Shown here piece after piece: positions 18,133-18,360 of a DNA stretch of 39,615 bases. The translations under genes and the position numbers were made by a program. Origin of the DNA: Escherichia phage PSK1; the sequence record PP541512.1. One strand, given 5' to 3'. How positions within the stretch are numbered: the first letter of the stretch is position 1; each line of letters starts with the position of its first letter. Below the pieces are notes generated by a model that had not been told where the DNA came from, ran no database searches, and saw only the letters and a program-made list of their open reading frames with translations.

Positions 18133-18360
18133 ATGAACACAATCACTGGTGCCATAACCAAAGGTTTTCGAGCAATTTTCGGTGAAACGCAAGAAGTATG
18201 CACCAATCATAAATTCGTACTTTCTTGCGTAGCAGGTGACGAGTTTGACGGATTCGATAAACTGGTGGTTTGCGACCATTGTGGACAAGAGGCTATCCAA
18301 CGCTCAAACGGTAAATTTGAATTAATAGACGATAGCCTTACAGAAGGAGACGGCGAGTAA
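18133..18360 (+). CDS. Early small Cys4 protein (putative zinc ribbon), function unknown
   Basis: 75 aa; GAGAGGGAAG RBS; cysteines at 23, 32, 47 and 50 (C-x8-C-x14-C-x2-C); acidic C-terminus. Confidence 0.6.
   Translation: MNTITGAITKGFRAIFGETQEVCTNHKFVLSCVAGDEFDGFDKLVVCDHCGQEAIQRSNGKFELIDDSLTEGDGE

Follow-up and report, generated by a model that had tools for sequence, protein, structure and literature searches.

A small acidic Cys/His-rich early protein of Escherichia phage PSK1, with a putative metal site, is shared by T7-like podophages and Kagunavirus siphophages

Introduction

The early inhibitors of phage T7 (Ocr/gp0.3, gp0.4, gp2, gp5.7, and gp5.9) are small, mostly acidic, non-essential proteins that bind proteins of the host. 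In general, genes that are patchily distributed, early, small, acidic and horizontally exchanged bear the usual signature of phage counter-defense or host-takeover inhibitors. How a small protein of this kind can block a DNA enzyme is shown by YacG of E. coli, a zinc-finger protein that inhibits gyrase and has an acidic tail at its C-terminus. As to metal ligation, the N-terminal ribbon of human TFIIB provides an example of CxxH...CxxC ligands, and a CxxCG at a hairpin turn combined with a CxxH located 20 residues upstream makes up a classic structural zinc pattern. Here we describe an open reading frame (ORF) at positions 18133-18360 of the DNA of Escherichia phage PSK1 (sequence record PP541512.1), which encodes a 75-residue early protein reminiscent of these systems. 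The whole stretch analyzed, 39,615 nucleotides (nt) long, is referred to below as the window, and positions are given in its numbering. An earlier note on this DNA, made from its letters, had described the product as a mini-protein with four cysteines, possibly a zinc ribbon, and had related it to small zinc-binding early proteins that inhibit host enzymes.

The protein shares with the T7-like small early inhibitors the genomic neighborhood and the expression class; like them, it is small, acidic and non-essential and is presumed to bind a host protein stoichiometrically. However, no similarity in sequence links it to any of these inhibitors; it is Cys/His-rich and predicted to be beta-rich, and occurs also in siphophages of the genus Kagunavirus, the early program of which is quite different. 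YacG belongs to the same size class (about 65-75 residues) and also consists of a Cys-ligated metal knuckle domain (putative in our case) followed by an acidic tail, but the two are not homologous, as judged from empty sequence searches of the PDB, and the spacing of their cysteines differs. Zinc ribbons and rubredoxin-like knuckle domains possess, as is predicted for our protein, two x2-spaced ligand pairs about 20 residues apart, CxxCG at a beta-hairpin turn, and strands beside the knuckles. As for the anti-CRISPR and anti-defense cassettes found next to helix-turn-helix (HTH) regulators, these are also single small ORFs, patchy and exchanged, and the Kagunavirus copy of our gene lies beside a cro-like HTH gene and an early promoter; however, this HTH gene is the phage's own regulator, present without the cassette as well, and none of the defenses tested is countered by the gene.

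Results

ORF 18133-18360 is a translatable, constrained, early-positioned, dispensable and horizontally exchanged gene for a small acidic Cys/His-rich protein, which our structure models predict to be beta-rich. To compare its variants, 17 distinct nucleotide versions of the gene were collected and subjected to Nei-Gojobori counts. The full-length frame is the sole frame open throughout in all 17 of them, and the ratio of nonsynonymous to synonymous differences per site (pN/pS) amounts to 0.18 over the entire gene and to 0.054 within the core E21-L64, with the synonymous sites being approximately saturated (mean pS 0.59); between the window copy and that of phage AN17P1, for instance, 24 of the 27 synonymous core sites differ. 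The 20 N-terminal residues are looser (pN/pS 0.47), and so is the C-terminal tail (0.29), the terminal G-D-x-E of which is nevertheless kept. The frame, the start codon and the ribosome-binding site (RBS) are retained across three phage lineages. Since the core is so strongly constrained at saturated synonymous sites and no other frame stays open in the homologues, there is hardly any room for doubt that the gene is real. Two other sources of conservation were considered and rejected: the antisense frames are broken in the homologues, which disposes of an antisense gene, and an RNA element found no support in Rfam (no match at E <= 1 in 16000-19300).

The product, MNTITGAITKGFRAIFGETQEVCTNHKFVLSCVAGDEFDGFDKLVVCDHCGQEAIQRSNGKFELIDDSLTEGDGE, has a net charge of -8 and an isoelectric point (pI) of 4.46. 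Its cysteines occupy residues 23, 32, 47, and 50, that is, exactly the C-x8-C-x14-C-x2-C pattern reported in the earlier note, which was also correct in describing a strong RBS (GAGAGGG stops 5 nt ahead of the ATG and its GAGG core 6 nt ahead), an acidic tail (5 of the last 10 residues, DDSLTEGDGE, are acidic) and an early position, the gene being flanked by an Ocr homologue and the T7-type RNA polymerase gene within the class I early region. In most homologues a GAGG-type site is found at an equal distance from the ATG. Cysteine makes up 0.92% of the phage proteome, so the protein is enriched in it 5.8-fold; the probability of at least four cysteines in 75 residues is 0.005 per ORF, which is marginal if taken alone over 48 ORFs. 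Elsewhere in the genome CxxC occurs in a single protein, at residues 18 and 37 of the 566-residue product of ORF 27322-29022, which from its size and position is probably a gp4-type primase-helicase. In the copy of the Kayfunavirus AN24P4 (locus L015, 2501-2719) a frameshift replaces the ending ...NEEGDGDGE by ...NEEGGRRW, and the acidic tail is gone; this may reflect either dispensability of the tail or a sequencing error.

A tblastn search of 50,697 phage records retrieved 56 carriers of the gene. About 31 belong to the podophage genus Kayfunavirus and about 25 to the siphophage genus Kagunavirus (Guernseyvirinae), among the latter Golestan, XY1, K1ind1, and Bas70, Bas73 and Bas75, with protein identities of 72-92%. 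Neither T7 nor K1F is among the 56 matches, in agreement with the earlier note, whose author could recall no T7 counterpart; in K1F the early region has nothing corresponding to 18100-18418 of the window. When 17001-19300 (the only stretch compared) was aligned with Golestan, a segment of 266 nt proved to be 89.9% identical (locus L005, 3980-4245), and the rest gave no match. The rightward early operon of Kagunavirus, divergent from the cro-like HTH gene, has this gene as its first ORF. The 167-residue product of the gene downstream of it is not Ocr-like (BLASTP E 22; it belongs to phrog_3127, which has no annotated function).

The junctions of the cassette are seen in a clean presence/absence polymorphism: Bas70 possesses 246 nt that are absent from Bas74; they start 7 nt ahead of the ATG, end 11 nt past the stop codon and are inserted within the RBS of the next Kagunavirus gene. 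The window copy keeps Kagunavirus backbone sequence on both sides, including, after the stop codon, a dead vestige of the RBS and start codon belonging to the gene that comes next in the siphophage (AACAGGAGAGAACCAAATCG vs. ACAGGAGAGAAACAAATG in Kagunavirus). Because the counterpart of this vestige is present at the empty site of Bas74 and hence belongs to the Kagunavirus backbone, the sequences point to a transfer from siphophage to podophage in clade A, one of the two sequence clades of the gene. Both clades are found in both genera, which means that the exchange took place more than once; the clade B copies of Kayfunavirus (AN17P1, AN24P4, 1RS) sit in another slot, after the homologue of a 65-residue gene. 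At the level of sequence, these comparisons demonstrate the exchange of a cassette of approximately 250 bp between unrelated phages sharing hosts. The opportunity for such an exchange is documented, as two Kayfunaviruses (22664BS1 and 22664UKE3-2) and a Kagunavirus (22664BS2) were isolated on one O25b ST131 strain (PMC8614997) and all three carry the gene. The phages of both genera depend on glycans, and their E. coli hosts bear O-antigen or a capsule (PMC11990801).

The most divergent homologue (P0003; 78 residues, 67% identity) is encoded at 768-1004 of locus L022, a Logan contig of 1871 nt (SRR14489481), by an ORF overlapping by 4 nt another one of 184 codons, which has no PHROG match. The flanks of this ORF match the early region of Slopekvirinae podophages of E. 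coli and Salmonella (P64441, PAS7; genomes of about 43 kb) from which the gene itself is missing. This contig probably represents a third phage lineage carrying the cassette.

Several irregular copies were encountered as well. On two short contigs (L023, 938-1327; L024, 253-642), one of them labelled E. coli, a 129-residue in-frame chimera (P0006) fuses residues 1-106 of Ocr with the 23 C-terminal residues of the Cys protein (AIQHSNGKFELIDDSLTEGDGE); this deletion variant lacks the entire putative metal-binding core. In phage BEU33 (locus L014, 3208-3375, minus strand), and also in BEU35, a second, inverted partial copy (residues 12-67, 86% identity) lies about 600 bp upstream of the intact one. 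The records of these phages are unannotated and marked UNVERIFIED_ORG, and the partial copy could be either a true inverted duplication or an assembly artefact. One more carrier, PV615262 ("Acinetobacter phage vB_Aba_01KA," 39,611 bp), is nearly identical in length and in this gene to the E. coli Kayfunavirus vB_Eco_1RS (39,612 bp), so that its host label looks doubtful. The RNA polymerase of vB_Eco_1RS is annotated as several fragments, which suggests frameshift errors.

In PHROGs v4, the protein matches phrog_32657 over its full length (E 1.5e-52, residues 1-75 vs. profile positions 1-75) and belongs to this family; the divergent P0003 matches it too (E 1.5e-35). The family has neither annotation nor structure nor experiment attached to it and thus says nothing about function. 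In a word-indexed search of 5.8 billion proteins, five clusters (67-93% identity) and one chimera came up; an exhaustive profile search of 1.84 billion representatives gave nothing beyond the family itself, and a search of 185,579 species, one genome each, no match; in IMG/VR, eight loci were found, all belonging to the same two phage types. Nothing significant came from NCBIfam or from PADLOC (a library of defense, not anti-defense, genes), and no known anti-defense family was matched by name in any library used. Pfam zinc families were matched below threshold only (ADK_lid, E 0.034, 14.5 bits vs. a cutoff of 26.6; TRASH, 0.0047, with one member; RIM2a_ZnF, 0.22), rubredoxin, Ogr_Delta and zf-dskA_traR were not matched even at E <= 10, and the Ocr family PF08684 gave no match to this ORF. 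Sequence searches of the PDB gave nothing at E < 0.77, and the four weak matches were all zinc modules aligned on CDHCG; over all the searches, every weak match was to a zinc module and centered on this motif (ADK_lid, TRASH, RIM2a_ZnF, C2H2, PHD). Profile comparison by hhalign does place C23/H26 and C47/C50 in register with human TFIIB, but at a probability of 5%, which is not significant and gives no evidence of homology to TFIIB. No study of this protein was found in the literature. The family is therefore an orphan with no detectable relatives of known function, and neither the profile nor the PDB sequence searches yielded the confident match to a family of another role that would have contradicted the zinc-ribbon suggestion.

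As to the candidate metal site, C23, H26, C32, C47, C50, and G51 are invariant in all the homologues found. In the six-sequence alignment 36 of the 75 columns are invariant, and the segment E21-E53 is nearly so throughout. Within the second knuckle, by contrast with its ligands, D48 is replaced by Ala in one phage and H49 by Tyr in clade B. There are two x2-spaced pairs of potential ligands, C23-x2-H26 and C47-x2-C50-G51, 20 residues apart. Models were built from the six-sequence alignment; the AlphaFold (AF2) model of the core alone scores 70.8 in the predicted local distance difference test (pLDDT; 62-71 over the five models) and comprises the strands F28-L30, K43-C47, E53-Q56, and F62-L64. 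In this model, C47-x2-C50 lies on the hairpin turn between strands 2 and 3, and C23/H26 just before strand 1. From the meander topology we infer that C23/H26 would be on the same side as the C47-C50 turn, and that C32, located just past the C-terminal end of strand 1, would be far from it. The loop G35-D42 is the lowest-confidence loop in both structure models, the core and the full-length one.

Since H26 is invariant and C23-x2-H26 and C47-x2-C50-G are canonical knuckles, unlike C-x8-C, we favor, on the grounds of sequence pattern and model, Cys3His (C23, H26, C47, C50) as the likelier ligand set, with C32 as a spare; Cys4 is retained as the alternative, and the weak PDB alignments to PHD and RING-like modules (E >= 0.77) do pair C32 with C47/C50. 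Thus, the Cys4 site of the earlier note holds insofar as all four cysteines are invariant in 17 distinct sequences with pS of about 0.59 (a check of low power), and has to be modified as regards the ligands, C-x8-C being no knuckle and H26 being invariant. That the protein is stabilized by a metal at all we consider fairly probable.

The gene is bordered by two similar predicted RNA hairpins. The upstream one (predicted at -18.5 to -20.5 kcal/mol) is near in sequence and shape (ACAGGTCATC..GGTGGCCTGA) to the T7 0.7/1 intergenic hairpin, which was reportedly described as the RNase III site R1 by Dunn & Studier 1983. By its sequence and predicted fold it is thus an intergenic hairpin of the T7 R-site type, and the RNase III-type site announced upstream of the gene by the earlier note is borne out in this sense. 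An exact 12-mer, CCTGACTGATAG, occurs three times, at 17052, 17369, and 18097, always ahead of an early ORF. Similar intergenic hairpins recur along the early region (17020-17065, 17346-17385, 18072-18110, 18420-18474), three of them carrying this 12-mer. In K1F a single hairpin replaces the pair that flanks the cassette, the retained copy being that at 18420-18474; for this reason we suppose that early-gene cassettes may recombine or be inserted at these hairpin repeats.

The source DNA is a K1F-like Kayfunavirus genome of the T7 group in a circularly permuted form, and the 2.3 kb around the gene are 95-98% identical to phages LI10P1, vB_EcoP-22664UKE3-2, and LM33_P1. The positions of the features discussed are collected in Table 1. 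Some properties of the neighboring genes deserve mention. The Ocr homologue is 168 residues long vs. 117 in T7; PF08684 spans its residues 8-94 only, and the C-terminal extension of about 70 residues beyond this domain is common to K1F-like phages (phrog_2568). At 18493-18582, a strongly hydrophobic ORF of 29 codons (MNIGYLVCLSPVIFLIGYGIYDCIKRKSL) with a good RBS, annotated in related phages, overlaps via ATGA the next gene (18579-18776, a homologue of K1F gene 0.6); it possibly encodes a small membrane peptide. The large terminase gene (13877-15607) ends at 15607 and is followed by the early region (16000-19200), so in this permuted window the physical ends of the genome and the terminal repeat should lie around 15.7-16.9 kb.

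Table 1. Positions of the cassette, the gene, its putative protein motifs and the flanking elements in the window
Feature	Position	Strand	Basis or remark
Ocr homologue	17417-17923		PF08684, E 5.7e-29
Upstream RNA hairpin, RNase III-site type, 5' boundary of the cassette slot	18072..18110	+	Predicted fold, similarity to T7
Mobile single-gene cassette	18113..18377	+	Only stretch of 17001-19300 common with Kagunavirus siphophages
Shine-Dalgarno sequence GAGAGGG	18121..18127	+	Direct sequence reading
Coding sequence, 75 residues, 8.2 kDa, pI 4.46, phrog_32657 member	18133..18360	+	ATG to TAA
First putative metal knuckle, C23-T-N-H26	18199..18210	+	C23 and H26 invariant; just ahead of strand 1 in the model
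C32, fifth candidate ligand, spare or alternative to H26	18226..18228	+	Invariant
Acidic-aromatic loop G35-D-E-F-D-G-F-D42, candidate interaction surface	18235..18258	+	Invariant
Second putative metal knuckle, C47-D-H-C50-G51, turn of strands 2/3	18271..18285	+	C47, C50 and G51 invariant
Acidic C-terminal tail, DDSLTEGDGE (clade A), EEGDGDGE (clade B)	18331..18357	+	Disorder predicted
Vestigial RBS and degenerate start codon of the siphophage's next gene	18369..18388	+	After the stop codon
Downstream hairpin of this type, 3' limit of the slot	18420..18474	+	Predicted fold; aligns to the 18072-18110 hairpin
T7-type RNA polymerase	19200-21881		

Discussion

The explanation that we prefer, and to which as a whole we would give slightly less than an even chance, is that the gene encodes a zinc-stabilized acidic accessory protein blocking a protein of the host. 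By analogy with the class I genes of T7, it would be transcribed immediately early by the host RNA polymerase, and its transcript might be excised from the early polycistronic RNA at the flanking RNase III-type hairpins. The 48-residue core could form a small beta domain of four strands that a single metal ion, most likely Zn2+, holds together, with C23-x2-H26 and C47-x2-C50-G as ligands clamping the N-terminal knuckle to the turn of strands 2 and 3, and C32 as a spare or alternative ligand. In this case the scaffold may present the invariant acidic-aromatic loop GDEFDGFD and the acidic tail as a binding surface, and the protein would bind and block its target stoichiometrically right after the entry of DNA. 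The most plausible target would be a protein that handles nucleic acids or serves immunity in E. coli bearing a capsule or O-antigen. Binding to nucleic acids themselves is unlikely, since a net charge of -8 is too acidic for that. A strain-specific target is favored over a universal housekeeping one by the patchiness of the gene's distribution and by its traffic between families of phages. As for the parts of this explanation, the size, charge, timing and patchy distribution make it an evenly balanced proposition that the protein is an inhibitor acting by protein binding; a counter-defense role specifically is possible but doubtful.

A number of observations weigh against this explanation. 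Many of the carriers are close kin, and their counts overstate the number of independent acquisitions. The models rest on six sequences, the full-length one reaching a pLDDT of only 54, and the conservation of cysteines is uninformative on which residues are the ligands, since the whole core is invariant. Metal binding, partner and phenotype are all putative. Also to be counted here are the published plating data for the Kagunaviruses of the expanded BASEL collection, which comprise the carriers Bas70, Bas73, and Bas75 and the non-carriers Bas71, Bas72, Bas74, and Bas76 (these phages are not isogenic): the carriers have no advantage against any defense tested (PMC11990801, S1 Data). For Bas70 and Bas73, just as for Bas71 and Bas72, restriction by restriction-modification (RM) systems of types I, II, and III amounts to 1e-3 to 1e-6, and EcoKI and EcoCFT_I are among the systems restricting Bas70 and Bas73 (PMC11990801). 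Plating on Old is at 0.2-1.4 for Bas70, 0.04-0.29 for Bas71, and 0.3-1.2 for Bas72, and the carrier Bas73 forms no plaques, whereas the non-carrier Bas72 plates (PMC11990801). The exclusion by cryptic prophages of K-12 hits Bas74-76 whether or not the gene is present, and RexAB, PifA, Fun/Z, and Tin have no restricting effect on any of these phages (PMC11990801). No anti-RM, anti-Old or anti-cryptic-prophage phenotype that tracks the gene was found in these data, and an Ocr-like anti-restriction or anti-Old role is unlikely.

Among the other explanations, the one that survives best, being unlikely in our opinion but deserving serious attention, is a general host-takeover factor directed, for example, against RNA polymerase or sigma, the replisome or SSB partners, gyrase, or cell division, similarly to T7 gp0.4, gp2, gp5.7 or to YacG. 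The timing, size and charge of the protein fit such a factor as well as they fit a strain-specific inhibitor, the carriers overcome no BASEL-tested defense, and the DEFDGFD loop loosely recalls the acidic Phe-containing tails by which SSB (SSB-Ct) and T7 gp2.5 bind their partners. However, factors with universal targets tend to be fixed in a genus, and this gene is absent from most Kayfunavirus and Kagunavirus genomes as well as from K1F.

A less probable alternative concerns the metal rather than the function: the cysteines might bind no zinc and form instead an Fe(Cys)4 rubredoxin-like redox center or be buried or disulfide-bonded in a metal-free beta mini-domain. Rubredoxin of Pfam is unmatched even at the most permissive threshold used, disulfides are unlikely in the cytoplasm of E. 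coli, and the CxxCG at the hairpin turn with the CxxH 20 residues upstream follows the structural zinc pattern described in the Introduction.

Still less probable is a zinc-finger regulator binding nucleic acids, like Ogr/Delta of P2 or DksA/TraR. A small Cys-rich early protein encoded, in Kagunavirus, beside a cro-like regulator and a promoter region might suggest such a role, but its acidity (net charge -8, pI 4.5, no basic patch in the sequence), the predicted beta-rich rather than helical structure and the lack of matches to Ogr_Delta, zf-dskA_traR or any other DNA-binding family speak against it; besides, the gene is dispensable, and the cro-like regulator is present with or without the cassette.

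An Ocr-like DNA mimic blocking RM or BREX has an even smaller chance and is largely refuted for classical RM. The protein is acidic, its gene adjoins Ocr in the podophage, and the in-frame chimera of Ocr with its C-terminal tail occurs in two contigs; nevertheless, the carriers Bas70 and Bas73 are restricted by all three types of RM like the non-carriers, there is no similarity to Ocr, a beta-rich protein of 75 residues is too small for an extended mimic of B-DNA, and Kayfunaviruses already have Ocr. Finally, a spurious ORF or a selfish cassette useless to the phage, which the lack of a known function and the dispensability of the gene could suggest, is scarcely credible in view of a core pN/pS of 0.054 at saturated synonymous sites and the frame, start and RBS kept in three lineages.

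In general, the earlier reading of this locus as a zinc-ribbon-like early protein was reasonable and, as far as the sequence goes, is partly supported, with the metal site refined to CxxH...CxxC. What is new here is the extreme purifying selection, the orphan status over very large databases, and the base-resolution exchange of the cassette between podophages and siphophages infecting the same pathogenic E. coli. At present, we are dealing with an ordinary hypothetical protein whose evolutionary signals are unusually clean. It is conceivable, though improbable on the present evidence, that phrog_32657 is the founder of a new zinc-stabilized family of counter-defense or host-takeover proteins which neutralizes a protein of immunity or of DNA handling in extraintestinal E. 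coli with a capsule or O-antigen and is traded as a cassette of about 250 bp among T7-like podophages, Kagunavirus and, probably, Slopekvirinae competing for the same strains.

The family is tractable: the protein has only 75 residues, phages naturally with and without the gene are available in BASEL, and the insertion junctions are known to the base. Kayfunavirus (e.g., LM33_P1) and Kagunavirus are leading candidates for therapy against ST131 and K1 E. coli, and an early accessory gene under extreme purifying selection, passed between both genera, is a good candidate for a determinant of the strains that support their growth. If the target is indeed a defense protein, the family would provide not only a new inhibitor but also, in an indirect way, access to an immunity system of E. 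coli that lies outside the classical tests.

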